From an uncultured Alphaproteobacteria bacterium (lineage in GTDB: Bacteria; Pseudomonadota; Alphaproteobacteria; Rhizobiales; Beijerinckiaceae), in assembly GCA_963806935.1 (NCBI GenBank), contig CAWEAT010000011.1, forward strand, positions 140,347-204,346: 64,000 nucleotides of DNA, given 5' to 3'. Numbering within the stretch: the stretch's first letter is position 1; the number at the start of each line of letters is the position of its first letter. Positions 18,748-35,199 of the stretch are shown here, piece by piece. A program made the position numbers and the translations under genes. Below the pieces are notes generated by a model. It was not told where the DNA came from, made no database searches, and worked only from the letters and a program-made list of their open reading frames with translations.

Positions 18748-18821
18748 TGGGGGATAGTTCAACGGTAGAACAGCGGACTCTGACTCCGTCAATCTTGGTT
18801 CGAATCCAGGTCCCCCAGCCA
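18748..18821 (+). tRNA. tRNA-Gln(CTG)
   Basis: Acceptor stem TGGGGGA/TCCCCCA, anticodon loop CT-CTG-AC, GGTTCGAATCC T-arm, encoded CCA; TTGACG promoter hexamer at 18701. Confidence 0.97.
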
Positions 18822-18937
18822 GCTTTTTCCTAAGCTCTTATAAAGGCTCAGCTTTCGCCCTAGCCGATTCTGCGGTTGGCGCCGATTGCTACAACTCGCT
18901 GCTACAAAGTCCGCGCCCGCGCGGCGAAGGCGCAGTT

Positions 18938-21379
18938 GTGGCTTCCATCGGAAACGTCGTGCAGCGGCGCGGCATTTTTCACTTTCGGCGCGTCGTCCCG
19001 ACCGACCTGCGCATCAGGATTGGGCGCTGCGAGCTCGTCCGCTCGCTCGCCACCGGCGACCCCCGCGATGCCAAGATGCGCGCGTCTCAGCTATACCTCG
19101 TCTCCGAACGCCTCTTTGTGGCCGTCCGACGGGATCCGATGCTAACCGACGCTCAACTGGCCGGCCTGGTTCAAGCTTTCTTTGTGCACGTCCTCGAAGA
19201 AGAGAACAGACGCCGGCTCTCAGGCTCCTATTTGACGGCGGAAGTTCGCGAGGCGAGGCGCGACTATTGGGACGCAGTCGCGGCGAAATCGAAGGAGTCG
19301 TTGGCGTGCAACCGTCTCGAAGACGCTTCGTGGGTCGCCGAGGCGATGCTTCGAAAGCAGCGCTTGCCGCGGTCGAGTCTGAGCCAAGGAGAAATTGCCC
19401 AGGTCAAGCAGGCGATGCTGCGTGCCGGCGTCGATCTCGCAGAGGCCTTGAAAGCAAGGTACGACGGCAACTTCAACTATGACCCGCGCGACAAATTACT
19501 CAAGCTAAAACTGGCCGAGGCGCCCCAACTCGGCGGCCCGGCGGCGACGCCTGCAGCGGCGACGACCGTTCAACAGACAGTTGCGCCCGGACCTTTGATG
19601 TCCGACGCTGGCAAAGCATTCCGAGAGCGCCAAGTCGCCACAAAGAGTTGGGACCTTCAAACCTCGGCGCAGGCTAGCATGGCAAGCGTTCTGCATGGCA
19701 GCGCCCGCACGACGCCGCGTATTCGAGCCGAGCTCCAAGCGTCGAAAGAGAGCGCCCGCTCCCTTGCAGCGCGCTACGACCTGAACCCCAAGACTGTGCG
19801 GAAGTGGCGCCAGCGGACCACGACGGCCGATGCGCCGATGGGGCCGAAGGCTCCGAAGAGCACGGTGCTGACGCCAGCCGAGGAAGCCATCGTGGTGGCG
19901 TTCCGCCAGAAGACGCTGTTGCCGCTGGACGACGTGCTGGGCTGCCTGAGGGATACCATTCCCAATCTCAGCCGGAGCGCCCTACACCGTTGCCTCCAGC
20001 GGCATGGGATCTCCAGGCTGCCCAAGCGAAGAGGCCAGCGAGCAAGCGCAACCGGTTCAAGAGCTACCAGATCGGCTATGTCCACATCGACAGCTGCGAA
20101 CTGCGACACACCGACGGCAAGCTGGTCATGTTCCTGGCGATCGACCGGGTCTCGAAATTCACCTACGTCGAGTTCCACGACAGCGCCGGAAAGAAGGAGG
20201 GCGCAGCTTTTTTGAGAAATGTCGTGGCCGCCTTCCCCTACAAGATCCACACCGTGCTAACCGATAACGGTATGGCCTTCGCCGATCTGCCCAAGAATCG
20301 CGAAGGCCCCAGCCGGCGTTTCCTCGGCCCGCACATCTTCGATCGCGTCTGCATCGAACATGGGATCGAGCACCGGTTGGCCACATATCGTCTCTTCATC
20401 GATGTATGTGGAGACAAGCCGATCGGTTCCTATTCTCGGCAGGATGCTGGCCGCTTTCGTGAGCAAATCGAAAGGCTGCCCAACGACTACGGGCGGTCCG
20501 CCGCCTCAAAATCTCTCCCCGTAGTTGCAATCACCGCAACGCACGCGGCTCTTCCCCCGGCGACCCGTTCCGCGGTGATTTCGCAGAAGACGGTAAAGCG
20601 CCATTTCTCCGCTCTGTCAGCGCTCTGGGCCCAGGCAGTCCCAAAAGGCGAAGCCGCGGAGAATATCTTCAAGGGCTTCAGTTTCGCCGGGGGCAAGTCC
20701 CCAGTTGATCAACGGCAGATGTGGGACGGCGAGGCGCTTGCCGAACTTTTTGCAACGCCCGTCTGGAAGGGTTGCAAGTCGGAGGCGCGACGAACCAAGC
20801 CGGGGACGTACGTACTGAGGGACGCCCGATTTTGGCTGCCGCTCATCGCCGTATTCTGGGGCATGCGCGAGGAAGAAATCTGTCAGCTACAACTCGAAGA
20901 TATCCGTGAGGAAGCAGGAGATCTGGTTCATGGACATCAATGGCCGGGCGCCGCGCAAATTGAAAAACTCCGTGGCTGTTCGCAGAGTGCCGATCCACCC
21001 CGAGTTGATCCGGATCGGATTTCTCGATTGCGTGGACGCACAGCGCTCAAAGGGGATGAGCCGCGTATTCCCCGACCTCAAACCTGGCGGGGCGGACGGT
21101 CGATTGGGACACGGCTTCGCGAAGTGGTTTAGTCGTTACCGCCAGGAGGTGGGTATCTTCCGCCCTGGGCTCGACTTTCACTCCTTCCGGCACACTGCAA
21201 CGACGCTGATGCACCAAGCCGGAATTGAGCATGCCGTTCTCGACCATTTGACGGGGCACGTCACCCCAGGCGAGACTTCACGCTATACGAAGGGTTCGAT
21301 CTTGCCTCAGCTCGCAAGAGCCATAGAATCGATACGAATCAAGGTCGATTTTTCGGCTTTGTATGTCGGCTGTTGTTGA
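18938..21379 (+). pseudogene. DUF6538-domain tyrosine integrase, interrupted by an IS481 fragment and frameshifted near 20905
   Basis: N-terminal IFHFRRVVP.DLR..IGRCELVRSL; catalytic GMREEEI..L, K, HSFRH, GH, RY; sits directly after the tRNA. Confidence 0.85.
19679..20379 (+). mobile_element. Internal fragment of an IS481-family transposase, no terminal repeats
   Basis: MASVLHGSARTTPRIRAELQAS...YDLNPKTVRKWR...GYVHID...TVLTDNGMAF...IEHRL, cut before the catalytic Glu region. Confidence 0.85.
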
Positions 21380-21877
21380 TCGGGGCCGCGAGACGCCAGT
21401 CTGCGCGACCGGTTCTCACGTTGGCATAGCTCGCTGCCGCCGGTCTCGCACGAACGCCGCTTATCGATGTCCGGGGTTCGAGGCGGCGCTCAAGACCCAA
21501 GGCAAGTACATCAGCCCGGTGCTCCTGGAGCTGGGGTGGCGGCGCAAACGGATATGGAGCACGACAGGGCAGTATCATCGCTACTGGGAACCGCCCCGCG
21601 GCGCACGGATTGACCGAGGTGCTGTGGCTAGGGGTGAAAAACTCCGGTGTCTCAGACGGTCGGAGTCGACGCAGAGCACCCGTTGCGGATCGCGGCCTTG
21701 GACGCCTCAATTGGGCGGATAGCGGCCCTTGGCCGAACGGCAGGAAATGGGAGAATAGCGGGCGTAGAATGCTGCCACGGAAGGCGCGGAGTCCGCCCGA
21801 AGTAGACCTTCGTTTGTGGGGTCGCGAAGACGATCGGGCGTCGTGCAGCGCCGCCTTCGTCAGCCCCGCGCCTCAGA

Positions 21878-21979
21878 GGCGACAAAACTCGTCGCGGTCG
21901 TTAATGTGACGACTGCCGGGCGCTCGGCGTCGAAATCCCGCCGACGCTGCTCGAGGGCGCGGACGAGGTGATCGAATGA
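21878..21979 (+). pseudogene. C-terminal remnant of an ABC-type solute-binding protein
   Basis: ATKLVAVVNVTTA..ALGVEIPPTLLEGADEVIE* tail only. Confidence 0.65.
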
Positions 21980-22935
21980 GGCGGCGCGACTTTCTTGCCC
22001 TGATGGGCTGCGCGGCTTCAGGGCCGCTCGGGGCTGCGGCGCAGAAGAAGCCGGCGCCAGTGATCGGAATGCTCGATCCCGACGTGAGCTTCGTCTTCGA
22101 CGCCTTCGTCGAAGGCATGCGCGATCTCGGCTATGTCGAGGGGCGGAACATCGCCTATTCGCGCAAGGTCTTGCATGGGAACTTCGCCGTCGTCCCCGCG
22201 CTCGCGGCCGAGTTGGTCGATCAGAAGGTGGACGTCGTCGTGACGGTGTCTCCGTCGCTTATTCGCGCCGTCGAGCGCGCGTCGAATACGATGCCGATCG
22301 TAGTCCTCGCTAGCGCCGATCCCGTCTCGGCCGGCTTCGCCATAAGCTTCGCGCATCCCGGCGGCAATATCACGGGCGTGTCTTTCGTAGACGAAGAATT
22401 GGCCGCGAAGCGGCTCGATCTGTTGCACGCGCTGGTTCCCAATCTCCGCGACGTCGCCGTGTTCTGGTGGGGCGACCCGAAGGGCCAGGGCCTGACGTCC
22501 GCGGAGAGGGCCGGACAGGCGCTCGGCCTGCAACTTAACCGCTGGGAACTGGCGAGCGTGGACGCGTTCGAACCCGCGTTCCGGGAAGCCGCCGCGGCGA
22601 AGATGGACGGGGCTTATGCGCTGGCCTATCCGTTCTTCAACGCGAACCGGGCCCGGTTCGCTGAACTCGCCGCGAAATACCGGCTGCCGGCGGTCTACGA
22701 ATCCGCGGACTACGTCCGCTCGGGGTGCCTGATGGGTTACGGGCCGGTGTTCACCGATATGGGTCGGCGCGGCGCCTATTTCGTTGACAGAATTCTGAAG
22801 GGGGACAAGCCCGGCGATCTACCCTTCGAAGTGACGACCAAGTTCGAGCTGTCGATCAATCTGAAAGCCGCCGAAGCGCTCGGTCTCGCCGTCCCGCCAA
22901 CGCTGCTCGCCGGCGCCGCCCAGGTGATCGAATGA
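21976..22935 (+). CDS. ABC_sub_bind (PF04392-like) solute-binding protein 1
   Basis: MRRRDFL leader, DPVSAGFAISFAHPGGNITG, KRLDLL, G.LMGYGP, KPGDLPFE, INLKAAEALGL. Confidence 0.85.
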   Translation: MRRRDFLALMGCAASGPLGAAAQKKPAPVIGMLDPDVSFVFDAFVEGMRDLGYVEGRNIAYSRKVLHGNFAVVPALAAELVDQKVDVVVTVSPSLIRAVERASNTMPIVVLASADPVSAGFAISFAHPGGNITGVSFVDEELAAKRLDLLHALVPNLRDVAVFWWGDPKGQGLTSAERAGQALGLQLNRWELASVDAFEPAFREAAAAKMDGAYALAYPFFNANRARFAELAAKYRLPAVYESADYVRSGCLMGYGPVFTDMGRRGAYFVDRILKGDKPGDLPFEVTTKFELSINLKAAEALGLAVPPTLLAGAAQVIE

Positions 22936-23906
22936 GGCGGCGGGAGTTCATCGGTCTTCTCGGCGCGGCGGCGGCCACAGCGTCCGCGGCGTGGCCGGCG
23001 CCGGCGCGGTCGCAGGAGAAAATTCCGCGCATTGGCTATTTCTGGAACGATTTTCCTGACCCGAACGTGGGCGTCGCAGGCCTGCGCCAGGGGCTTCAGG
23101 AACGCGGATACGTCCTCGGCCGCAATCTTCTCCTGGAGGAGCGCTATGCGGAGGGAGACCCGTCGCGAACGCGCGACCTTATTACGGAGCTTCTTGCGCT
23201 CGGGGTCGACGTGCTGGTGACAGGGGACTTCGCGTTGATCCAGGCCCATACGCTGACCGCCACGGTTCCGATTGTCGGCGTTGCGGGGGATTTCGTCGGC
23301 GTCGGTCTTGCGGCGACACTCTCCCGGCCGGGTGGCAACGTCACGGGCCTATCGCTGTTGTCGGCCGATCTCAGCCCGAAATGGCTCGAGCTCCTGCAGG
23401 CGGCAGTCCCGAACCTCAATCGCGTCGCCTTCCTCGGGGATTACTCCGGGCTCACCGCCGAGGAAAAGCGAGGACTGGACCAAGCCGCACCGCGCTTTCA
23501 CGTTACGCTGACGCAGCTGGATATGTATCGCGCCAACTTCGAGGCGAGCCTCGAGGCGATCACGAGCGAAAGCTTCGACGGGCTCGTCGTGTCCGGCGAA
23601 TCCGACGCCGAATTCTCTCATTCCGCGGATTGTCGCGCACGCCGCGCAAAGCCGCATGCCAACGATCTACGGGACCAGCACAGCCGTCAGTCAGGGCGGC
23701 CTCATGTCCTACTCGGCCGATTCCTTCGAGCTCTGGCGCCAAGCCGCGGGCTACATAGACCGCATCCTCAAAGGCGCGAAGCCCGGCGACTTGCCGATCG
23801 AGCAGGCGACCGCGATCAAGTTCGCCATCAATCTCAAGACGGCCTCGGCGCTCGGCATCGAGATTCCCCGACGCTGCTCGCCGCGGCCGACGAGGTGATC
23901 GAATGA
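22932..23906 (+). CDS. ABC_sub_bind solute-binding protein 2 (frameshifts near 23625 and 23870)
   Basis: MRRREFIG leader, [32 protein letters not shown] tail. Confidence 0.8.
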   Translation: MRRREFIGLLGAAAATASAAWPAPARSQEKIPRIGYFWNDFPDPNVGVAGLRQGLQERGYVLGRNLLLEERYAEGDPSRTRDLITELLALGVDVLVTGDFALIQAHTLTATVPIVGVAGDFVGVGLAATLSRPGGNVTGLSLLSADLSPKWLELLQAAVPNLNRVAFLGDYSGLTAEEKRGLDQAAPRFHVTLTQLDMYRANFEASLEAITSESFDGLVVSGESDAEFSHSADCRARRAKPHANDLRDQHSRQSGRPHVLLGRFLRALAPSRGLHRPHPQRREARRLADRAGDRDQVRHQSQDGLGARHRDSPTLLAAADEVIE

Positions 23907-24868
23907 AAAGACGCGCATTCCTATCGCCTCATGGGGCTTGCCGCTGCATGGCCGCTCGCCGTGCGGGCGCAGCAAATGAAGATTCCGCGGGTCGGATTCC
24001 TGTGGATCGGCCCGCCTGAACCCGAAACAACCACCAGCAAAGGCATCAAGAAAGGGCTCGCCGAGCACGGATATGTCCTCAGCCGCGATCTCATCTTCGA
24101 TGCGCGCTATGCCGAAGGGGAAACCGGAGGCGGTTCCCCGCGCTGATCGCCGAGCTTCTGGATGCCGGGGCCGACGTCATCTTGCCCCAGGGCAATGCGG
24201 CGGCGCTCGTGGCCCATAAGGTGACCGCGACGGTCCCCATCGTCACCATCGGCGACGACCTCGTCGGCGTCGGCCTCGCCGAAAGCCTCCCCCACCCGGG
24301 AGGCAACGTGACTGGCATCGAGGTTCAGGCCGTCGAAATCCGACCGAAATGGCTCGAAATCCTGAAGGCCGTGGCGCCGAACGTTCGCTCCGTTGCGGTG
24401 CTGGGGGATGCGAACGAGACGCCGGGCGTGCTGAAGCTCGAGGACATGAGCGCCGCGTTTCGGGGTGACGCTGACTTTCCTCTCGTCGCTGCCGCCGGAT
24501 TTGGACGCAAGCCTGGCCGCGATTGGGTCGGGGCGGTTCGACGGCCTGATCGTCAATGACAATCCCTCTCTCGTGCCGGAGACCCCCCGCATCGCCGCGG
24601 TGGCTGCCCAGAATCGAACGCCGGCCGTCTATGGGTTGCAGTGTCGCGCCCATCTGGGCGGTCTCATCGGCTATTCCTTCGACGCCTTCGAGGCCGGGCG
24701 ACGCGCGGCCGACTTCGTCGACAAGATCCTCAAAGGCGCGAAGCCCGGCGACCTGCCGATCGAGCGGGCGACCAAGTTCATCACGTCGTCAATCTCAAGA
24801 CCGCGGAGGCGCTCGGCCTCGAAATCCCGCCGACCGTCCTCGCCGCCGCCGACGAGGTGATCGAATGA
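23903..24868 (+). CDS. ABC_sub_bind solute-binding protein 3 (several frameshifts)
   Basis: MKRRAF leader, [32 protein letters not shown] across frames. Confidence 0.75.
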
Positions 24869-24975
24869 GGCGGCGCGCGTTCCGCGCCGCACTCGTCCGT
24901 CCCGCTGGCCGACCACGGCTTGTGCTCGTGCGCCACGGCCGCATAGTGCGACGGGTGGGAGGCACGGGAGGCCCT

Positions 24976-25956
24976 ATGCTCACGCGTCGTCGCGTCCTGA
25001 TCTCCCTTGCCGCGGCTTGCGCCGTGGCGGCGCCGTCCTTCGCTCAGACCGACACAACGCTTCGCCTGGGAGCGATCGGAGGGGGCAGCCCGATGGCCCC
25101 GGACTCCGCATTCGGCAAAATTCTGATCGCCGCCCTCGCGGACCTCGGCTACGAACTCGGCCGCAATCTCACCTTCGAGTCCCGTGGCGCGCTCGCGAAT
25201 GTCGCCAAATTGCCCGGCCTTATCGCCGAATTGACGGCGGCCGGGGCGAGGATCCTGGTCGCATCTGGCTATCCCAGCGCCGCGGCCGCCAAAGCCGCCG
25301 GCGTACCAACTGTGATCTTCCTGGGCGCCGGCGATCCCGTCGCGACCGGCCTCGTGGATAGCTGGGCGCATCCGGGCGGCGTCGTCACCGGCATTTCGGA
25401 CGTTGCCGCCACTCTGACCGTCAAGCGGCTCGAACTTCTGAAGGCCGTTTCGCCGCAACTGAAGCGGGTGGCGATGCTTTGGAACGCGCAGGATCGCGCC
25501 ATGACTTTGCGCTACGAGGCGTCGGCCGCGACGGCGAAAATGCAGGGGATCGTGGTGCAGGCGCTCGGCGTCCGGGAGCCCAACGACTTCAACGCGGCCT
25601 TTGCGGCGATGGACAGCGACAAACCGGACGCGATCCTGATGGTCGCCGATTTGCTGACGGTTCTCAACCGCAAGCGCGTGTTCGACTACGCGCTGGCCCG
25701 ACGGCTACCGGCAATCTACGAGCTTGACAGTTTCGCCAGGGAAGGCGGGCTCATGTCCTATGGCGCCGACCTCCACGAATCCCTGACGCGCGCGGCCTCG
25801 ATGGTCGATCGCATCTTCAAGGGGACGCGGCCCGGCGACATACCTTTCGAGACGCCGACGCGATATCTTTTCGTCATCAATCTGAAGACCGCGAGGGCAA
25901 TGGGTCTCGAACCTACCATGGACTTGCTTGGGCTGGCTGACGATGTGATCGAGTGA
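24976..25956 (+). CDS. ABC_sub_bind solute-binding protein 4
   Basis: MLTRRRVL leader, GDPVATGLVDSWAHPGGVVTG, GGLMSYG, INLKTARAMGL, ADDVIE*. Confidence 0.85.
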   Translation: MLTRRRVLISLAAACAVAAPSFAQTDTTLRLGAIGGGSPMAPDSAFGKILIAALADLGYELGRNLTFESRGALANVAKLPGLIAELTAAGARILVASGYPSAAAAKAAGVPTVIFLGAGDPVATGLVDSWAHPGGVVTGISDVAATLTVKRLELLKAVSPQLKRVAMLWNAQDRAMTLRYEASAATAKMQGIVVQALGVREPNDFNAAFAAMDSDKPDAILMVADLLTVLNRKRVFDYALARRLPAIYELDSFAREGGLMSYGADLHESLTRAASMVDRIFKGTRPGDIPFETPTRYLFVINLKTARAMGLEPTMDLLGLADDVIE

Positions 25957-26049
25957 CGGCCAGGCAGCCAACACCGCTCGTCTCGGGGATTGGGCATGCC
26001 CCGATCCCGCCTTGCCAATTTCGGAGGTCTGTCGCAGTTTCGCCTGCGC

Positions 26050-26105
26050 AGTTGGCGTGACGATCCCGCGGCGATCCGGGTGAGGCCGAAGACGTGATCG
26101 AGTGA
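26050..26105 (+). pseudogene. Second C-terminal solute-binding-protein remnant
   Basis: With one indel reads GVTIPAAI.GEAEDVIE*, overlapping the kinase start. Confidence 0.5.
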
Positions 26106-29100
26106 CCATACGAGGCGCAATCCGCTCGTCGGACCCGGACGTAGCGCTTGATGCGGCGGCTGAGGCCCGCAAATCGACGCCGCGCCGGGCGTTGCGCGTT
26201 CCGCTGGCGGCGAAACTGGCCGCGGCGCTGGTCGGACTGGTCGGCCTCGTTCTTCTGGTCAACGGCGCCGTCAACACCTGGCTGAACTACAATCAGGCCA
26301 AGGACGCAGCCCTCGAGGTTCAAGAGGAAAAGGCCCGATCCGCGGCGGTTCGCGTCGGCGAATTTCTGGCCGACATCGAGACGCAGCTCGGCTTTACCAC
26401 CGGCGCCGAATGGCGCTTCGCCAAGCCCGATCAGCAGCGCTATGATTTCGTCCGGCTCTTGCGGCAGGTCCCGGCGATCACCGAGCTTTCCTATCTCGAC
26501 GGCCAGGGCAAGGAGCAGCTGAAGGTTTCGCGCCTCGAACCGGACTCGGTCGGGAGCGGCAAGGATTTTTCAACTGACCCGCGCTTCACGCAAGCCGTGT
26601 CCGACAAGATCTGGTTCGGTCCGGTCGAATTCCGCCGCGGCTCCGAGCCCTATATGACGATCGCGCTCGCCCATGTCGGCAAGAACTCCGGCGTGACCGT
26701 CGCCGACGTGAACCTGAAGCTCATCTGGGACGTCATCAGCGCCATCCGCGTCGGCGACAAAGGCTACGCCTTCGTCGTCGACGGCAAGGGCCGGCTCATC
26801 GCCCATCCGGATTTGAGCCTCGTTCTGCGCGACACGGATTTCTCCGAGCTTCCGCAGGTCCGGCAGGCGCTCGACGCCAACGCCCGCGCGGAGCCCGGCG
26901 CCGCCGCGACCCCGGGGCCCAGCGTCGGCGCGGCCGAGATCGCGACCGCTTTCGACGGGGGTAAGGTCCTAACCGCTTACGCGGTCGCGCCGCGCACGCA
27001 CTGGATCGTCTTCGTGCAGCAGCCGCTCTCCGAGGCGCTGGCTTCCGTCTATACGTCCCTGCTCCAGACCACCCGCGCCAGATAAGGGTGCGTCAGGGCC
27101 TCGCTCTCGTCGCCGTAGAGGAGGATGATGTCGCCGGCTTCGGCCTGAGCTTTGCGCAGTTGAAGGCGCAGTCCCACGCGTTCGATCTCGGCGGCAATCT
27201 GGCGGCCTTTCAGCGTGTGCCGGGGCCGCCGCCAGCGGAAGTTTTTTTTCGCAACGCCTTGGACAACTGCGACTTGCCGATCTTGACGCCCTCGCGCGCC
27301 TCGATCTCGGCCATGAGGCGCGGGATCGTCCAGTTGGGCCGGTCGGCGACGGGAGCTTCGAGCAGAGGCGCGACGACACGCAGCGCGGCTTCGGTCTTTA
27401 CCGGTGGCGGGCCGAGCGCCACGGTCGCCTTCAACGCCTCGACACCGCCGCGCGTGAACTCGCTGCGCCAAAGACGCACCGTGTCTTCGCGCACGCTGAA
27501 GGCTTCCGCAATGCGCGGGCTGGTCCATCCCGACAACGTCAGCAATATCGCCCGCGCCCGATCAGCCTCGCCCCGTGGCCCTGCTCGGCCTTGGCCTGCT
27601 GCTGGCGCTCACCGCCGGCGGACTCCTGGCGCGGCGGATGGTGGTGCCGATCCGCCGCCTGCAACAAGGCGCCGAAAAACTCGGGGCCGGCGATCTCGCC
27701 CAGCGCCTCGACATTCACACCGGTGACGAGATCGAGACGCTGGCCGACCGCTTCAACCAGATGGCGGGCCGAATCCAGGAGAGCTACGAAACCCTCGAAG
27801 CCAAGGTCGAGGCGCGCACGCGCGATCTCAACGAAGCGCTGCAACAGCAGACCGCGACCGCCGAGGTGCTGAAAGTCATCAGCGGCTCGGCGTTCGACCT
27901 GCAGCCGGTGTTCGATGCGCTCGTGTCCTCGGCGGTCGAGCTCTGCAATGCCCGTAGCGGGCTCATCTGCATCCGCGACGGCGAGGTCTTCCGCTATCGG
28001 GGCAGCGCCGGCGCGGGGCAAACCGAGTCCCTGATGACATATCTCGAGCACCATCCGGCGACGCCGGGGCGAGGCACGATCGCCGGCCGGGTGATGCTGT
28101 CGGGCCGGATCGAAGCCATTCCCGATCGCCTCGAAGACGCGGAATTCGCCGTGCCGCTGTCCTCCCTCGGCAATGAGGCGCGCGCCCTGCTCGGCGTGCC
28201 GCTCCTGCGAAACGACGCGGTCGAGGGCGTCCTCATCGTGTCGCGTCTGGAGCCGGGTCATTTCGCGCCGCGGCAGATCGAAGTCTTGCAAACCTTCGCC
28301 GATCAAGCCGTCATCGCGATCGAAAACGCCCGGCTGTTCGAGGAAGTGCAGGCGCGCACGCACGAACTCGCCGCAATCGCTCGACGATCTGCGCAAGGCC
28401 CAGGACCGGTTGATCCAGTCGGAGAAAGCTCGCCTCGCTCGGCCAGCTCACCGCCGGCATCGCCCACGAGATCAAGAACCCGCTCAATTTCGTCAACAAT
28501 TTCTCGGCGCTGTCGCGCGAGCTGATCGACGAGCTTCGCGAGCTCATCGCCAAGGCGCCGCTCGACGAGGCCGACCGCGACGAGGCGCAAGAGCTGATCG
28601 GCATGGTCGACGCCAATCTCGACAAGGTCGAAACCCACGGCAAGCGCGCCGACTCGATCGTCAAGAACATGCTGCTCCATTCGCGCGAGGGCTCCGGCGA
28701 GCGGACGCGCGTCAACGTCAACGCGATGGTCGAGGAGGCGCTGAACCTCGCCTATCACGGCGCGCGGGCCGAGAAGCCGGGCTTCAAGGTGACGATCGAA
28801 AAATCGCTCGATCCCGATGCGGGCAGCGTCGATCTCTACGCGCAGGAGATGACGCGCGTGCTCCTGAACCTGATTTCCAACGGCTTCTACGCGACGACCA
28901 AGCGCGCGCAGGGCGAGCCGGACGGGACTTACGAGCCCACCCTCGCCGCCTCGACGCGCAATCTGGGCGATCGCGTCGAAATCGCGCATTCAGGACAACG
29001 GAACCGGAATTCCCGACGAGGTGAAGGCGAAGATCTTCAACCCGTTCTTCACCACCAAGCCCGCCGGCGAGGGCACCGGGCTCGGCCTTTCGCTGAGCTA

Positions 29101-29227
29101 CGACATCGTCGTCAAGCAGCATGGCGGGACGCTGGAGGTCTCGACCGAGCCCGGCGCCTTCACCCGCTTCGCCATCGTCCTGCCGCGCGCCGGCCAGGCC
29201 CAGGCCAAGAATGGGGGTCAAAGTTGA
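26102..29227 (+). pseudogene. Cache-HAMP-GAF sensor histidine kinase, interrupted by an IS630 fragment plus further frameshifts
   Basis: TM-Cache (YLDGQGKEQLKVSR, FVVDGKGRLIAHPD)-TM-HAMP (GDEIETLADRFN)-GAF-HisKA (GIAHEIKNPLNF)-HATPase ([20 protein letters not shown]). Confidence 0.85.
27071..27574 (-). mobile_element. Internal fragment of an IS630-family transposase, no terminal repeats
   Basis: GEADRARAILL.LSGWTSPRIAEAF...NWTIPRL...KKK slippery A-run...RWRRPRHTLKG...YGDESEALTHPYLARV. Confidence 0.85.
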
Positions 29228-29613
29228 GCGTCCTGGTTCTGGTGGTCGACGACGAGCCCGACGTCGAGGCGCTGTTTCGCCAGCATTTCCGTCGGGATCT
29301 GCGTTCCGGGCGCTTGCGGATGGAGTTTGCGATGTCCGCGGCGGATGCGCTCGCACAAGTCGCGCGCGCATCGGAAAGCTCGCTGATCCTTATCCTCTCC
29401 GACATCAACATGCCGGGCATGACCGGGCTCGAAATGCTGCCGAAAGTGAAGGCGTTGCGACCCGAAGTGCCCGTCATCATGATCACCGCCTACGGCGATC
29501 CCGAGACCAAGCGCCGGGCGATCGAAGGCGGGGCCGACGGGCTGCTGACCAAGCCGATCGACTTTGCGACGCTGAGGGGAGAAATCGACCGGCGGCTGGA
29601 GCAGACGGCGTGA
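29224..29613 (+). CDS. Single-domain response regulator
   Basis: [28 protein letters not shown]; TTG start overlaps the kinase stop. Confidence 0.85.
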
Positions 29614-30119
29614 CGAATGAACGCGGCTCTGGTCGCGAGGTCAGTCAGATCAAAAGCCGTTTGCGCCGTAGAGGCGACGGCACAATGTGCAATTACTTCG
29701 GATGAATGCCGCGCTTCGGTCGAACTGACGCGTTCGATTGTCATTTCGGGAACGGCCGCTCCTGTGCAGGTTTTTGGACGCCGGCGGGGCCGATCTCTGC
29801 GGGCGCTCGGACGGCCGGCGTCCAAAAAGCGCCAGGGCACGAAGTCGCGGTCAGCCGGGGCGGCGGCTGGGAGTCGAGCGCTATGGGGATTTCAGGGTGG
29901 CGGCGCATTCGTTGAAGGCGGGACACCGGGGCGACGCGACCCGAATGCCTGCATGTGGCGGCGGGCGAGGGAGAGGAAGAAGCGTTCCGGCAGGGTCTGA
30001 GGGGTATCGACGGGCGCCTGGCGGATGGATTGCCCGGAATCGGGTCGAGAGGGATCGCCGCCGGCGTGGAGCCAGTGCAAGGGAACGGCAAAGCGGCGGC
30101 GCTGACAGGCGGGTCTGGC

Positions 30120-31331
30120 TCATGACGTGTCGTTTGTGCCCGGCGTCGGCCGCCACCTCGGCTCGCAGCCGCGCGCGAAGACCTCGATGACGATCATGCG
30201 GGCGCCGCAGCGCGGGCATGGGCAGGGCGCCGCGCGCGGCGCGTCCGGCGTGACGTCCGGCTGCGGTTGCGGGTCGGCGGCGGGCGGGTCGGCGCCGAGC
30301 AGCGCGCGGGCGGTCGCGATGTTCTCGGCTCGCTTGGCGTTGGCGAAGAGCCCGTAATGGCGGATGCGGTGGAAGCCCCTGGGCAGCACGTGCAGGAGAA
30401 AGCGCCGGATGAACTCGTGGGGATGAAGCCGCATCGTCTTCCAGCGGTCCGGCCCGGCGATGCGAGTATCCTTCCAGCGGAACGCGACGCCGGCGTCGTC
30501 GGCCGCGACGATGCGGCGGTTCGAGATCGCGACCCGGTGGGTGTAGCGGGAGAGATAGCGCAGCACCTGCTTGGGCCCGGCGAACGGCGCCTTGCAGTAG
30601 ACGACCCACCTGATGCGCCGCAGCGGGGCGATGAAGCGCTTGAACGCGGTCTTGTCGGCGAGCCCGGCGTGCGCGTTGAAGAACGTCAACCGGCCGGCGT
30701 CGTGGGCGTCCGCGAGCATCGCCAGCATCCTGCCGCTGAACAGGCGCGCCAGCAGGTTGACGTGCACGAGGAAGTCGGAGCGGCAGGCGACCCATCGCGA
30801 CCCGTCGGGCGACAACCCTCCGCCGGGCACGATCATGTGCACGTGCGGATGATGGGTGAGGGTCGAGCCCCAGGTGTGCAGCACGGCGGTGACGCCGATC
30901 CTGGCGCCGAGGCGCCTGGGATTGGCGGCGATGGCGAGCGTCGCCTCGGCCGCCGCCTTCATCAGGAGGTCGTAGATCACTCGTTTATTCTGCCAGGCGA
31001 TGTCGCGCAGCTTGCCCGGCAGCGTGTAGACGACGTGAAAGTACGGGACCGGCAGCAGCTCCGCTTCCCGGTCGGCCAGCCATCGGCGCGACGCCGCAGC
31101 CTGACACTTCGGGCAATGCCGATTCCGGCACGAGTTGTAGGCGACGTGCGTGTGGCCGCACGCCGCGTTCTCGCAGCGCGCCACGTGGCCGCCGAGCGCC
31201 GCCGTGCGGCAGCGCTCGATTGCGCTCATCGCCTTGAGCTGGTCGAGGCTCGCGTGACCGCGGTTGGCCTCGCGCCAGGCGGGACCGTGCTCGCGGAAGA
31301 TGTCCGCGAGCTCCAGAACGGGCCGAACCAT
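30120..31331 (-). CDS. IS91-family (Zn-binding + Y2/HUH) transposase
   Basis: YNSCRNRHCPKCQ, HTWG...HPHVH HUH motif, YLSRY Y2 motif, GFHRIRHYG. Confidence 0.9.
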   Translation of the reverse strand: MVRPVLELADIFREHGPAWREANRGHASLDQLKAMSAIERCRTAALGGHVARCENAACGHTHVAYNSCRNRHCPKCQAAASRRWLADREAELLPVPYFHVVYTLPGKLRDIAWQNKRVIYDLLMKAAAEATLAIAANPRRLGARIGVTAVLHTWGSTLTHHPHVHMIVPGGGLSPDGSRWVACRSDFLVHVNLLARLFSGRMLAMLADAHDAGRLTFFNAHAGLADKTAFKRFIAPLRRIRWVVYCKAPFAGPKQVLRYLSRYTHRVAISNRRIVAADDAGVAFRWKDTRIAGPDRWKTMRLHPHEFIRRFLLHVLPRGFHRIRHYGLFANAKRAENIATARALLGADPPAADPQPQPDVTPDAPRAAPCPCPRCGARMIVIEVFARGCEPRWRPTPGTNDTS

Positions 31332-31342
31332 GACCGGCGGCG

Positions 31343-32263
31343 CTATCGCGCCGGCGGCTTCTCGAGGTTCCGCGTGGCCTGCCTGTGGCGCGGCGTGATC
31401 AGGCGCGCGATCGGGCTCTCGACCTTGGCGATGAGGCCCGTCGCCACGCGGGTGTAGCGCGCCGTCGTGTCCAGCTTCTCGTGTCCGAGCAACGCCTGGA
31501 TCAGGCGAATATCCTTGCCGTCCTCGAGCAGGTGGGTCGCGAAGGAATGACGCAGCGAATGAAGGGAGACCGCCTTGCGCAGCCCCGCCGCTTTCGTCGC
31601 GTCCTTGAACAGCCGGCCGAACTGGCGCGTCGTCAGATGACCGGCGCGACCGGGAAAAAGCCAGCGCTGTTGCGGCGTCACGCCGGCGTCACGCCGTTTC
31701 GGCCGCGCCTTCCACCATTGTCGCAGCAGGTCGAGGATCTCGGGCGGAAGCATCACGTTCCGGTCCTTGCGGCCTTTCGACTGCACGACGCGAATGATCA
31801 TCTGGTCGCTGTCGATGTCGCACACCCGCAGCCGCGTCACCTCGCTGGCCCGCAGCCCGCAGCCATACGCGACCGACAGCATCGCCCGCGCCTTGAGGCT
31901 CGTCGCCATGGTCAGGACGCGCCTGATCTCCTCGGGGCTCAGCACCGGCGGCAGCTTCAGCGGCTCCTTCATGTGCCAGATCTCGGCCGCCAGGTCGTGG
32001 CGGCGCAGCGTGACCCGGAACAGGAAGCGCACCCCGGTCACGATCCGGTTGCGGTTGCAGATGCTCGCGCCGCTCTCGACGAGGTGCAGTTGGAAGAGGC
32101 GCACCTCGTCCGCCGTCGCCGTGTCCGGCGAACGCCCGAGCCAGGCGGCGAACCGCTTGCAGCTGGAAAGGTGGCCGCGTTGCGTGTGCGGGTCGAGCTT
32201 GCGCGCGGCCATGTCGTCGATCATACGCTGACGCAGTGGGCTGACAGTGTCGGTCTTGCTCAT
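31343..32263 (-). CDS. Tyrosine recombinase (XerC/D-like, SAM-like N-terminus)
   Basis: YGCGLRASEV, KGRKDR, HSLRHSFATHLLE, LGH, TTARYT. Confidence 0.9.
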   Translation of the reverse strand: MSKTDTVSPLRQRMIDDMAARKLDPHTQRGHLSSCKRFAAWLGRSPDTATADEVRLFQLHLVESGASICNRNRIVTGVRFLFRVTLRRHDLAAEIWHMKEPLKLPPVLSPEEIRRVLTMATSLKARAMLSVAYGCGLRASEVTRLRVCDIDSDQMIIRVVQSKGRKDRNVMLPPEILDLLRQWWKARPKRRDAGVTPQQRWLFPGRAGHLTTRQFGRLFKDATKAAGLRKAVSLHSLRHSFATHLLEDGKDIRLIQALLGHEKLDTTARYTRVATGLIAKVESPIARLITPRHRQATRNLEKPPAR

Positions 32264-32769
32264 GGAGAGCTCCATCCTGAGTGAGGTTCGCAACGCCTCG
32301 ATCTCAGGACGGGGCTCTCCGTAGCGCCATCGCTATTCTATCCGCCTGCTACCCAGCCTCCCGGCTCACGCCACCCCGCGCAGCGGGGCCGGAGCGGAGC
32401 GACTTCGTGCTTTGTGCAGGTTTTTGGACGCCGGCGGGGCCGATCTCTGCGGGCGCTCGGACGGCCGGCGTCCAAAAAGCGCCAGGGCACGAAGTCGCGG
32501 TCAGCCGGGGCGGCGGCTGGGAGTCGAGCGCTATGGGGATTTCAGGGTGGCGGCGCATTCGTTGAAGGCGGGACACCGGGGCGACGCGACCCGAATGCCT
32601 GCATGTGGCGGCGGGCGAGGGAGAGGAAGAAGCGTTCCGGCAGGGTCTGAGGGGTATCGACGGGCGCCTGGCGGATGGATTGCCCGGAATCGGGTCGAGA
32701 GGGATCGCCGCCGGCGTGGAGCCAGTGCAAGGGAACGGCAAAGCGGCGGCGCTGACAGGCGGGTCTGGC

Positions 32770-33981
32770 TCATGACGTGTCGTTTGTGCCCGGCGTCGGC
32801 CGCCACCTCGGCTCGCAGCCGCGCGCGAAGACCTCGATGACGATCATGCGGGCGCCGCAGCGCGGGCATGGGCAGGGCGCCGCGCGCGGCGCGTCCGGCG
32901 TGACGTCCGGCTGCGGTTGCGGGTCGGCGGCGGGCGGGTCGGCGCCGAGCAGCGCGCGGGCGGTCGCGATGTTCTCGGCTCGCTTGGCGTTGGCGAAGAG
33001 CCCGTAATGGCGGATGCGGTGGAAGCCCCTGGGCAGCACGTGCAGGAGAAAGCGCCGGATGAACTCGTGGGGATGAAGCCGCATCGTCTTCCAGCGGTCC
33101 GGCCCGGCGATGCGAGTATCCTTCCAGCGGAACGCGACGCCGGCGTCGTCGGCCGCGACGATGCGGCGGTTCGAGATCGCGACCCGGTGGGTGTAGCGGG
33201 AGAGATAGCGCAGCACCTGCTTGGGCCCGGCGAACGGCGCCTTGCAGTAGACGACCCACCTGATGCGCCGCAGCGGGGCGATGAAGCGCTTGAACGCGGT
33301 CTTGTCGGCGAGCCCGGCGTGCGCGTTGAAGAACGTCAACCGGCCGGCGTCGTGGGCGTCCGCGAGCATCGCCAGCATCCTGCCGCTGAACAGGCGCGCC
33401 AGCAGGTTGACGTGCACGAGGAAGTCGGAGCGGCAGGCGACCCATCGCGACCCGTCGGGCGACAACCCTCCGCCGGGCACGATCATGTGCACGTGCGGAT
33501 GATGGGTGAGGGTCGAGCCCCAGGTGTGCAGCACGGCGGTGACGCCGATCCTGGCGCCGAGGCGCCTGGGATTGGCGGCGATGGCGAGCGTCGCCTCGGC
33601 CGCCGCCTTCATCAGGAGGTCGTAGATCACTCGTTTATTCTGCCAGGCGATGTCGCGCAGCTTGCCCGGCAGCGTGTAGACGACGTGAAAGTACGGGACC
33701 GGCAGCAGCTCCGCTTCCCGGTCGGCCAGCCATCGGCGCGACGCCGCAGCCTGACACTTCGGGCAATGCCGATTCCGGCACGAGTTGTAGGCGACGTGCG
33801 TGTGGCCGCACGCCGCGTTCTCGCAGCGCGCCACGTGGCCGCCGAGCGCCGCCGTGCGGCAGCGCTCGATTGCGCTCATCGCCTTGAGCTGGTCGAGGCT
33901 CGCGTGACCGCGGTTGGCCTCGCGCCAGGCGGGACCGTGCTCGCGGAAGATGTCCGCGAGCTCCAGAACGGGCCGAACCAT
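32770..33981 (-). CDS. IS91-family transposase, copy 2
   Basis: Protein identical to 30120-31331. Confidence 0.9.
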   Translation of the reverse strand: MVRPVLELADIFREHGPAWREANRGHASLDQLKAMSAIERCRTAALGGHVARCENAACGHTHVAYNSCRNRHCPKCQAAASRRWLADREAELLPVPYFHVVYTLPGKLRDIAWQNKRVIYDLLMKAAAEATLAIAANPRRLGARIGVTAVLHTWGSTLTHHPHVHMIVPGGGLSPDGSRWVACRSDFLVHVNLLARLFSGRMLAMLADAHDAGRLTFFNAHAGLADKTAFKRFIAPLRRIRWVVYCKAPFAGPKQVLRYLSRYTHRVAISNRRIVAADDAGVAFRWKDTRIAGPDRWKTMRLHPHEFIRRFLLHVLPRGFHRIRHYGLFANAKRAENIATARALLGADPPAADPQPQPDVTPDAPRAAPCPCPRCGARMIVIEVFARGCEPRWRPTPGTNDTS

Positions 33982-33992
33982 GACCGGCGGCG

Positions 33993-34913
33993 CTATCGCG
34001 CCGGCGGCTTCTCGAGGTTCCGCGTGGCCTGCCTGTGGCGCGGCGTGATCAGGCGCGCGATCGGGCTCTCGACCTTGGCGATGAGGCCCGTCGCCACGCG
34101 GGTGTAGCGCGCCGTCGTGTCCAGCTTCTCGTGTCCGAGCAACGCCTGGATCAGGCGAATATCCTTGCCGTCCTCGAGCAGGTGGGTCGCGAAGGAATGA
34201 CGCAGCGAATGAAGGGAGACCGCCTTGCGCAGCCCCGCCGCTTTCGTCGCGTCCTTGAACAGCCGGCCGAACTGGCGCGTCGTCAGATGACCGGCGCGAC
34301 CGGGAAAAAGCCAGCGCTGTTGCGGCGTCACGCCGGCGTCACGCCGTTTCGGCCGCGCCTTCCACCATTGTCGCAGCAGGTCGAGGATCTCGGGCGGAAG
34401 CATCACGTTCCGGTCCTTGCGGCCTTTCGACTGCACGACGCGAATGATCATCTGGTCGCTGTCGATGTCGCACACCCGCAGCCGCGTCACCTCGCTGGCC
34501 CGCAGCCCGCAGCCATACGCGACCGACAGCATCGCCCGCGCCTTGAGGCTCGTCGCCATGGTCAGGACGCGCCTGATCTCCTCGGGGCTCAGCACCGGCG
34601 GCAGCTTCAGCGGCTCCTTCATGTGCCAGATCTCGGCCGCCAGGTCGTGGCGGCGCAGCGTGACCCGGAACAGGAAGCGCACCCCGGTCACGATCCGGTT
34701 GCGGTTGCAGATGCTCGCGCCGCTCTCGACGAGGTGCAGTTGGAAGAGGCGCACCTCGTCCGCCGTCGCCGTGTCCGGCGAACGCCCGAGCCAGGCGGCG
34801 AACCGCTTGCAGCTGGAAAGGTGGCCGCGTTGCGTGTGCGGGTCGAGCTTGCGCGCGGCCATGTCGTCGATCATACGCTGACGCAGTGGGCTGACAGTGT
34901 CGGTCTTGCTCAT
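33993..34913 (-). CDS. Tyrosine recombinase, copy 2
   Basis: Protein identical to 31343-32263. Confidence 0.9.
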   Translation of the reverse strand: MSKTDTVSPLRQRMIDDMAARKLDPHTQRGHLSSCKRFAAWLGRSPDTATADEVRLFQLHLVESGASICNRNRIVTGVRFLFRVTLRRHDLAAEIWHMKEPLKLPPVLSPEEIRRVLTMATSLKARAMLSVAYGCGLRASEVTRLRVCDIDSDQMIIRVVQSKGRKDRNVMLPPEILDLLRQWWKARPKRRDAGVTPQQRWLFPGRAGHLTTRQFGRLFKDATKAAGLRKAVSLHSLRHSFATHLLEDGKDIRLIQALLGHEKLDTTARYTRVATGLIAKVESPIARLITPRHRQATRNLEKPPAR

Positions 34914-35199
34914 GGAGAGCTCCATCCTGAGTGAGGTTCGCAACGCCTCGATCTCAGGACGGGGCTCTCCGTAGCGCCATCGCTATTCTATCCGCCTGCT
35001 ACCCAGCCTCCCGGCTCACGCCACCCCGCGCAGCGGGGCCGGAGCGGAGCGACTTCGTGCTTTGGCGCAACGGACGCCTTGAGCCGAAGTCCGCTTTGTT
35101 GCGCATCCCTTCCGTTGCAGGGACGGGCTGGATCGTCTGCAAACGGACGGGCTGGATCGTGTGCAAAGTGTGGAACTTTCGCGTTGGACGCTGGGCCAA

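Follow-up and report, generated by a model that had tools for sequence, protein, structure and literature searches.

The 64,000-nucleotide (nt) stretch analysed here, called the window, comes from an uncultured alphaproteobacterium of the Beijerinckiaceae (assembly GCA_963806935.1, contig CAWEAT010000011.1). It carries an array of genes for PF04392 (ABC_sub_bind) solute-binding proteins, followed by genes for a Cache-domain histidine kinase and a receiver protein. We consider it fairly probable that the locus was acquired horizontally and is a copy, now partly decayed, of a three-part signalling operon conserved in soil Hyphomicrobiales. The predicted operon consists of at least one periplasmic PF04392 binding protein without a transporter, a membrane dCache-HAMP-GAF-HisKA-HATPase kinase and a stand-alone CheY-like receiver, and the array probably acts as a multi-input sensor. 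The elements of the locus are listed below by window position (aa, amino acids; TM, transmembrane helix; IS, insertion sequence). Loci and genomes used for comparison are designated by L numbers and three-digit G numbers, respectively.

21795–21877, + strand: leader U, conserved and non-coding, 82–90% identical to the region 5′ of the first binding-protein gene in L054
21878–21979, + strand: T0, tail-only PF04392 remnant (...ATKLVAVVNVTTA / RALGVEIPPTLLEGADEVIE, stop) seen in three-frame translation, with one frameshift and no start codon
21976–22935, + strand: G1, type A, intact, 319 aa; PF04392 138.9 bits, profile 18–293
22932–23906, + strand: G2, type B, frame open; PF04392 first half only, profile 17–166 of 293
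23903–24868, + strand: G3, type C, pseudogene spread over three frames, with at least four frameshifts near 23926, 24131, 24457 and 24785
24865–24975, + strand: head remnant MRRRAF of a lost binding-protein gene; its ATG overlaps the G3 stop and the rest is without family similarity
24976–25956, + strand: G4, type D, kinase-proximal, intact, 326 aa; PF04392 152.8 bits, profile 20–292
26050–26105, + strand: T5, tail-only remnant (VGVTIP / AAIRVR / AEDVIE, stop) in three frames, seen in three-frame translation
26102–29227, + strand: histidine kinase, TM1-dCache_1-TM2-HAMP-GAF-HisKA-HATPase, disrupted; Pfam dCache_1 79 bits, HAMP 61.5, GAF 55.3
27071–27574, − strand: IS630-family transposase gene fragment, 504 bp; HTH_32, HTH_23 and HTH_29 matches
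29224–29613, + strand: CheY-like single-domain receiver, intact, 129 aa; Response_reg 81.8 bits; start codon TTG, overlapping the stop of the kinase gene (TTGA)

An earlier note on this DNA had described four full binding-protein genes and two tail-only remnants that run into a Cache-HAMP-GAF kinase and a receiver. The two tail remnants, T0 and T5, are real, each of them frameshifted itself, and the head remnant is found in addition. Of the four genes, G1 and G4 are intact, but G2 is doubtful (two indels) and G3 is a pseudogene. Likewise, the kinase domains and the receiver are present as described, but the kinase gene is broken by the IS630 fragment and three insertions.

Conservation of the operon in related loci

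A search with the Cache region of the kinase returned thousands of homologues, and gene context was examined for eight kinases that are 63–99% identical in this region, including that of the complete Methylobacterium brachiatum chromosome CP033231. In all eight related loci, one or more PF04392 genes lie directly 5′ of the kinase gene on the same strand, with 4 nt of overlap or no more than 150 nt in between, and no permease or ATPase gene is present inside the operon. A single-domain receiver follows the kinase in seven of the eight, the exception being L047. Array content differs among relatives, as the earlier note had supposed, and ranges from one to five binding proteins across the loci compared:

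L051, L052: one binding protein
L047: two binding proteins
L042, L044–46: three binding proteins
L048–50, window: four binding proteins
L054: five binding proteins

Identity matrices show that the arrays are collinear, in the order A-B-[variable]-D-kinase. Type A (G1) stands first, with 86% identity in L054 and 98% in L053; full-length 319-aa orthologues of G1, P0121 and P0123, are 98% and 86% identical to it. Type B (G2) is second (89–98% identity), and the middle slot is occupied by G3 in L042 and L043 and by unrelated types in L044, L048 and L054. Type D (G4) always adjoins the kinase. Its orthologues are 77–97% identical overall: 96–97% in L042, L043, L044 and L047, 80–83% in L048 and L054, and 77–78% in L052. 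Identity between paralogues is 34–38% for G1 against the others, 49% for G2 against G3, and 36–37% for G4 against the others. Recent tandem duplication was rejected as the origin of the array, the paralogues being only 34–50% identical and collinear with orthologues in other lineages.

The non-coding parts of the array are also shared. Leader U can be aligned in L042, L043, L044 and L047 as well; no sigma-70-like promoter was scored inside it, and a promoter and terminator scan of the operon gave no signal in the leader that exceeded shuffled expectation. A non-coding orthologue of T0 is kept 5′ of the first gene in every related array in the multiple alignment. A first BLAST extension (95%) had made the remnant 5′ of G2 in relatives look like a G1 tail; this assignment was rejected, as the multiple alignment shows it to be the T0 orthologue. 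T5 closes a 146-nt spacer after G4, and its GTGA overlaps the kinase start. It is present in L042–L048 (93–95% in continuous alignments for L042–L047, ~83% for L048) and absent from L052 and L054, where the type D gene directly overlaps the start of the kinase gene. Folding of the spacer between G4 and the kinase is no better than that of shuffled sequences (z = −0.6).

Near-identical modules (~93–98% at the nucleotide level; L042, L043, L044 and most of L047) have at least four further sets of flanking sequences, in which integrase or IS genes are frequent neighbours, and one database match at 94% identity is labelled Roseiarcus sp. The module thus appears to be cargo of a plastic, horizontally exchanged region.

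Absence of a transporter and the proposed mechanism

The absence of a permease or ATPase, which the earlier note had stressed, holds for the window operon, and no homologue of the canonical permease was recognised in the assembly. Canonical PF04392 genes (~345 bits) were found in two genomes of the same order, G039 and G040, with a permease adjacent in each; the neighbours in G039 are a BPD_transp_2 permease and an ATPase. The best match to the G039 permease in the present genome is only 27% identical (E = 1.7e-9). No match at E ≤ 1e-15 was found in this genome, in G010 (17 family copies), or in G065, G290 and G318, which are complete genomes from one genus of the same order with 10–25 PF04392 genes each. 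As far as homology can tell, the PF04392 subfamily of the window appears to be transporter-less. No PF04392 match was found in the 4.9-Mb assembly beyond the array, and among 24 genomes of the same genus three contain the family above the Pfam gathering cut-off of 25.9 bits and a fourth has a match below it.

The absence of a transporter, together with the conserved operon, makes a mechanism like that of LuxP/LuxQ or HptA/HptS the best inference. According to this proposal, the binding proteins, which have twin-arginine-like signal peptides (the N-terminus of G1 is MRRRDFL), would each trap their own small ligand in the periplasm. Each would dock on the dCache domain of the kinase, as for LuxP on LuxQ or HptA on HptS, and thereby alter autophosphorylation and phosphotransfer to the receiver. 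The divergent paralogues would provide several inputs for one kinase, with type D (G4) as the conserved kinase-proximal partner and the upstream positions evolutionarily labile.

Several points weigh against this interpretation. The sensory role is proposed on the grounds of conserved synteny and transporter absence. For more distant homologues of the Cache kinase (32–52% identical) the link is weaker: in two of 20, a PF04392 gene stands immediately 5′ of the kinase gene on the same strand, in five others PF04392 is found within 1.5 kb, and the other 13 lack it. Of 18 PF04392 loci in the complete genome G318, ~16 lie more than 5 kb from any kinase, receiver or Cache gene. Since direct ligand binding is usual for dCache domains, sensing may not require the binding proteins. 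With an assembly that is ~93% complete, a transporter may also have escaped detection. Finally, the assembly is indel-prone (142 frame switches per Mb, against 40 in G004; dnaE frameshifted), and some of the lesions described below may be artefacts.

These points bear in part on an alternative that we regard as unlikely, in which the binding proteins are transport components for a shared or non-homologous transporter encoded elsewhere, as in Bug (TctC)-like systems, and the kinase only regulates transport or uses one of the proteins dually, as in BctC-BctE. The family is annotated as ABC substrate-binding, and its solved members bind aromatic amino acids (L-Trp, L-Tyr and L-Phe; PMC10443332). 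The family's own permease, however, is without a homologue here or in the three complete genomes with 10–25 copies. G318 has 25 orphan copies, the majority of them solitary and away from signalling genes, but the family in the present genome is confined to the kinase-linked array. The 93% completeness of the genome also favours this alternative, but transporter genes are absent inside the operon at all eight related kinase loci.

We retain a probable sensory function for the kinase-linked arrays. Since most G318 loci lie away from signalling genes, there must be further partners or roles for the subfamily taken together, and extension of the sensory role to all of its orphan members was rejected, most G318 copies being solitary. 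The earlier proposal of a sensory rather than a transport module is supported by synteny in eight of eight loci and by transporter absence; it cannot be extended to the subfamily, and the window copy itself is most likely not working.

Two further arrangements of PF04392 genes were observed. In G290, approximately nine copies are packed round a Cache kinase at 6.919–6.934 Mb. In L056 (G010:C23:1-9623) and L084 (G318:C1:5076500-5091500), PF04392 arrays flank or neighbour a gene for a soluble protein of 1126 aa (SAM / adenylate-guanylate cyclase / AAA_16, STAND-like). This cyclase/STAND-like protein appears, from its gene context, to be a second kind of signalling neighbour of the orphan subfamily.

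Decay of the window copy

The kinase gene starts at GTG 26102, and the dCache_1 domain (residues 65–305) lies between the hydrophobic stretches LAAKLAAALVGLVGLVLLV and VALLGLGLLLALTAGGLLA. When read through, the kinase has 872 aa, the same length as the intact orthologues P0002 to P0004 with HisKA and HATPase_c; intact orthologues at 95–99% identity bear PF00512 and PF02518. The window gene contains single-base insertions at 28373, 28428 and 28987, all in the catalytic half and all private to the window. The frameshifts at 28428 and 28987 split the catalytic core, which was not recovered by Pfam on the open reading frame pieces. The IS630 fragment spans the HTH part to the first DDE region of the transposase gene. 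It is inserted between the Cache domain and TM2, where it substitutes for one kinase base with a net gain of 504 nt and puts stops into the kinase frame. Because five related loci (L042, L043, L044, L047 and L048) align seamlessly without it and the assembly contains no second copy, the fragment cannot be a base-calling artefact. The receiver is identical to that of L042 except for the last few residues.

The binding-protein genes were aligned with those of the near-identical metagenome contigs L042 (96.5%) and L043 (97%). In G2, indels at 23613 (+1) and 23867 (−1) put the stretch between them out of frame; that the frame stays open despite this shifted middle is due to chance. Both indels lie at GANTC sites and are private to the window relative to L042, in which the G2 orthologue is intact (322 aa); at the GAATC site of the window G2 lesion, L043 carries a +1 that differs from that of the window. 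The pieces of G3 give only partial PF04392 matches. Its orthologues in L042 and L043 are broken too, with a common −1 at 23911 and lesions private to each. In this three-way alignment, 12 indel events fall within the 1 kb of G3 itself and none within G4 and the N-terminal 1 kb of the kinase. G3 is a genuine pseudogene in the clade of the window, L042 and L043, because its orthologues share the −1 and each sequence has lesions of its own.

The region of the head remnant differs by indels of 24 nt and 2 nt in L042 and L043, so its coding sequence is not conserved; it is now a spacer 5′ of G4. Its ATG at 24865 is in frame with G4 in this assembly, a frame that is not conserved in L042 and L043, and a ribosome coupled from the G3 stop may yield G4 with a 37-aa N-terminal extension before the signal peptide.

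The reliability of the frameshifts was assessed with a Viterbi frame decoder based on GC content at third codon positions (GC3), which counts frame switches well before a stop. G027 was unusable as a control (55% GC, only 37% recognised as coding), and G004 and G024 were used. Frameshift-like switches number 142 per Mb in the present genome (G000), 40 in the 98%-complete G004 and 189 in G024, both of the same genus. The array is among the densest clusters in the genome, with six frameshift calls in 8 kb against ~1.1 expected. Just upstream, dnaE is frameshifted at 15750, where GATTC is read as GATTTC. Four of the 12 single-base indels private to the window fall at GANTC, the CcrM methylation motif, against ~0.35 expected by chance: those in G2 at 23613 and 23867, in the kinase gene at 28987 and in dnaE at 15750. 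Judged by this coincidence, the four are probable base-calling artefacts linked to methylation. G2 may consequently be intact in the cell, its lesions being possible base-calling errors. Several few-contig genomes of the genus are also of low completeness, which points to indel-rich assemblies across the genus.

It is on these grounds that one might suppose the whole module to be intact and functional in the living organism, the frameshifts and perhaps even the IS630 insert being consensus or assembly errors of a long-read metagenome-assembled genome. We find this improbable. A switch density 3.5 times that of the clean same-genus genome, the lesion in an essential gene (dnaE) at a GATTC site, the GANTC-site indels, which include both G2 lesions and one in the kinase, and the existence of intact orthologues at 95–99% identity all agree with it. 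However, a foreign, stop-bearing insert of 504 bp is no base-calling error, and there is no second copy that could have caused a chimera; the array has more automatic frameshift calls than expected; and G3 is broken independently in three assemblies, with one lesion common to two. The module copy in this genome is most likely non-functional, because its kinase is split by the stop-bearing IS630 fragment and frameshifts and G3 is a pseudogene. As decaying cargo of a plastic region, the locus would be of little importance to this genome.

A paralogous multi-GAF kinase gene and receiver gene lie elsewhere in the assembly (G000:C32:33058-36926), with ~75% nucleotide identity to the catalytic half of the window kinase and the receiver. 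The paralogous kinase might replace, or cross-talk with, the broken one.

The motif at the unit junctions

Six copies of GTGATCGARTGA were found in the window by pattern search, all on the + strand between 21968 and 26105 (at 21968, 22924, 23895, 24857, 25945 and 26094); 0.78 are expected, and none of 100 shuffles reaches six. These are the shared end motifs of the earlier note, lying about 6 nt to the right of where it had placed them. They terminate the four gene-length PF04392 units and the two tail remnants. The chaining of genes by ATGA or GTGA stop-start overlaps, also reported there, was seen at five of the six copies; the copy at the G4 stop (25945–25956) is followed by the 146-nt spacer, with no coupled downstream gene.

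The C-termini of 120 homologues of G1 read ADEVIE in 51, VIE in 74 and E in 98, and most of the 120 begin with MRRR(D/E)F. ADEVIE is the consensus C-terminus of the subfamily, and in protein terms the junction represents family consensus to either side. At the nucleotide level, the 3′ end of 16S rRNA in this genome is GGATCACCTCCTT, and GAGGTGATC is a perfect 9-nt Shine-Dalgarno complement located 7 nt ahead of the stop-overlapping ATG or GTG. The last codons of T0 provide GAGGTGATC and the ATGA start of G1. In the window and eleven other loci, 21 of 32 tails contain GAGGTGATC, and 29 of 32 encode the tail valine with GTG; across this genome, valine codons are 30% GTG and 61% GTC. Seven type D tails that stand before a spacer, not a coupled gene, have one or two mismatches and start with GAT or GAC.

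We conclude that the junction GA(C/G)GAGGTGATCGA(A/G)TGA is subfamily C-terminus, 9-nt Shine-Dalgarno match and overlapping start of the next gene all at once, and that these constraints together maintain it. This triple role would explain why the junction is kept at synonymous sites, and tails would survive deletions because they hold the ribosome-binding site of the next gene. The motif would be an example of a C-terminal protein consensus locked in by the ribosome-binding site of the following gene.

Breakpoints of unit gain and loss

Breakpoints were located from pairwise identity profiles with a resolution of 20–40 nt. Loss of type A in L042-type arrays joined T0 to type B at the junction, identity to L042 rising to 95% at 22923. 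Replacement of the middle slot (L044, L048) begins on the left at the G2/G3 junction, with a drop in identity at ~23899; on the right it ends, in L044, for which this edge was mapped, ~155 nt before the G3 stop. L053 is truncated within G2, at 23460. In L043, a group II intron with RVT_1 and GIIM genes (L043:5546-7861) lies at the equivalent of window 23925–23930, ~20 nt past the start of the G3 orthologue and its junction. No recombinase gene adjoins the array in L042, L048 or L054.

The earlier note had suggested that the shared 3′ motif acts as a recombination point and had expected breakpoints in relatives to fall within it. Two breakpoints, that of type A loss and the left one of the middle-slot exchange, do lie at the junction, but others lie ~155 nt upstream of a stop or in mid-gene, and as a recombination point the motif was not upheld: ADEVIE is the consensus C-terminus, and its DNA is an extended Shine-Dalgarno sequence with the next start. 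In its strongest form, the suggestion would make the ADEVIE-coding motif a dedicated recombination site and the binding-protein genes integron-like mobile cassettes moved by site-specific exchange. We hold this to be very improbable, although close relatives differ in array content, two classes of breakpoint coincide with the junction at the 20–40 nt resolution of the profiles, tails are what deletions leave, and the group II intron of L043 lies 20 nt beyond a junction. The motif is fully explained by its coding and translational roles, and paralogues that are ancient (34–50% identical) and collinear across lineages do not fit free shuffling. An integron-like system needs a dedicated recombinase and all boundaries at one site; the array has neither, with no recombinase near the arrays of L042, L048 and L054 and breakpoints away from the motif.

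Gain and loss of units appears instead to break at or near junctions as a tendency, in the way that homologous recombination between the best-conserved stretches of tandem paralogues would give when combined with selection for units that can be expressed. Junctions are the longest near-identical stretches among the paralogues, and ordinary homologous recombination there could account for whole units being gained, lost or swapped.

Flanking sequences

The DNA to either side of the operon contains mobile-element genes. On the left is the following feature, identified by ARAGORN, Pfam (DUF6538) and translation:

18748–21379, + strand: tRNA-Gln, then a DUF6538-type tyrosine integrase gene interrupted by an IS481 fragment

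The tRNA-Gln and integrase genes form the left edge of a plastic, island-like region. No direct repeat of tRNA-Gln (attR-like) was found in the window or the genome. Directly 3′ of the receiver gene, positions 29763–35064 comprise an exact tandem dimer of a 2650-bp unit with a tyrosine recombinase and an IS91-like (Y2) transposase gene. The IS630 fragment (27071–27574) and the IS481 fragment (19679–20379) are both end-less pieces of transposase genes cleanly embedded in host genes, each the sole copy in the assembly, and look like filler-DNA capture more than transposition.

Implications and comparison with known systems

Our most general proposal, which we put forward tentatively and hold to be possible but doubtful, is that orphan PF04392 proteins of soil Alphaproteobacteria form an unrecognised signalling family. 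Arrays of paralogues would be interchangeable antennas for a single dCache kinase, and the junction of C-terminus, Shine-Dalgarno sequence, stop and start would enforce translational coupling and channel the recombination of whole units. If the pairing of array and kinase works as proposed above, a new binding-protein family would join the kinase-stimulating mechanism, the arrays would be an example of multiple inputs to one kinase, and the many PF04392 genes without a transporter in Bradyrhizobium-like and Methylobacterium-like soil bacteria would gain a suggested role, at least where they are linked to a kinase. Because the sequenced M. brachiatum chromosome contains an intact version with one binding-protein gene, the idea can be tested experimentally.

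Genes for solute-binding proteins that stimulate kinases are typically encoded beside signalling genes, and dCache-like domains such as those of LuxQ, HptS and ChiS bind such proteins and are recurrent docking partners (PMC8050422). Approximately ten pairs of binding protein and kinase have been characterised, PF04392 not among them (PMC8050422, PMC9602780). A literature search found no published study of a PF04392 binding-protein/kinase pair or of a role of PF04392 in signalling.

LuxP/LuxQ (autoinducer-2, AI-2, in Vibrio) and HptA/HptS (glucose-6-phosphate in Staphylococcus aureus) likewise have a transporter-less binding protein beside a membrane kinase with a bimodular dCache-like periplasmic domain, and the ligand-loaded binding protein modulates the kinase (PMC8050422); in the present case such modulation is predicted. 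As in those systems, the binding-protein gene is adjacent and co-oriented, a conserved arrangement found in eight of eight related loci and weaker at 32–52% kinase identity (two of 20), and the window kinase has an extracytoplasmic domain (dCache_1) between two TM helices. The differences are that their binding proteins belong to Peripla_BP_4 and other families, not PF04392; that they have one binding protein per kinase, whereas arrays here have up to five divergent ones; and that the kinase here has a bona fide Pfam dCache_1 domain with HAMP and GAF.

The ABC importers of the TrpX type have binding proteins of the same Pfam family and fold as those of the window, and the solved structures nearest to G4 are of this type (3LFT, 3LKV and 6HNI). 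Canonical members score ~345 bits and have a BPD_transp_2 permease and an ATPase adjacent, whereas the window subfamily scores ~140–150 bits and has the ADEVIE end and Tat-like signal peptides but lacks a cognate permease in this genome. The Bug (TctC) expansions of Bordetella, with BctC/BctE, likewise show an excess of orphan binding proteins over membrane partners, one member of which signals to a kinase (PMC9602780). They differ in protein family and in the kinase sensor domain, which is 2CSK_N, and BctC also serves a transporter; none is evident here.

Convergence of several periplasmic binding proteins on one transmembrane receptor, as proposed here, is familiar from Escherichia coli, in which Tar interacts with maltose-binding protein and Trg with the ribose- and galactose-binding proteins. 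Tar and Trg differ from the array in being chemoreceptors, not kinases, and their binding proteins are bona fide transporter parts encoded elsewhere, with no tandem array in the receptor operon. Among these systems, the operon described here would be a variant of the binding-protein-stimulated sensor kinases, distinguished by a binding-protein family that had not been connected with signalling before and by an array of several proteins whose content varies.

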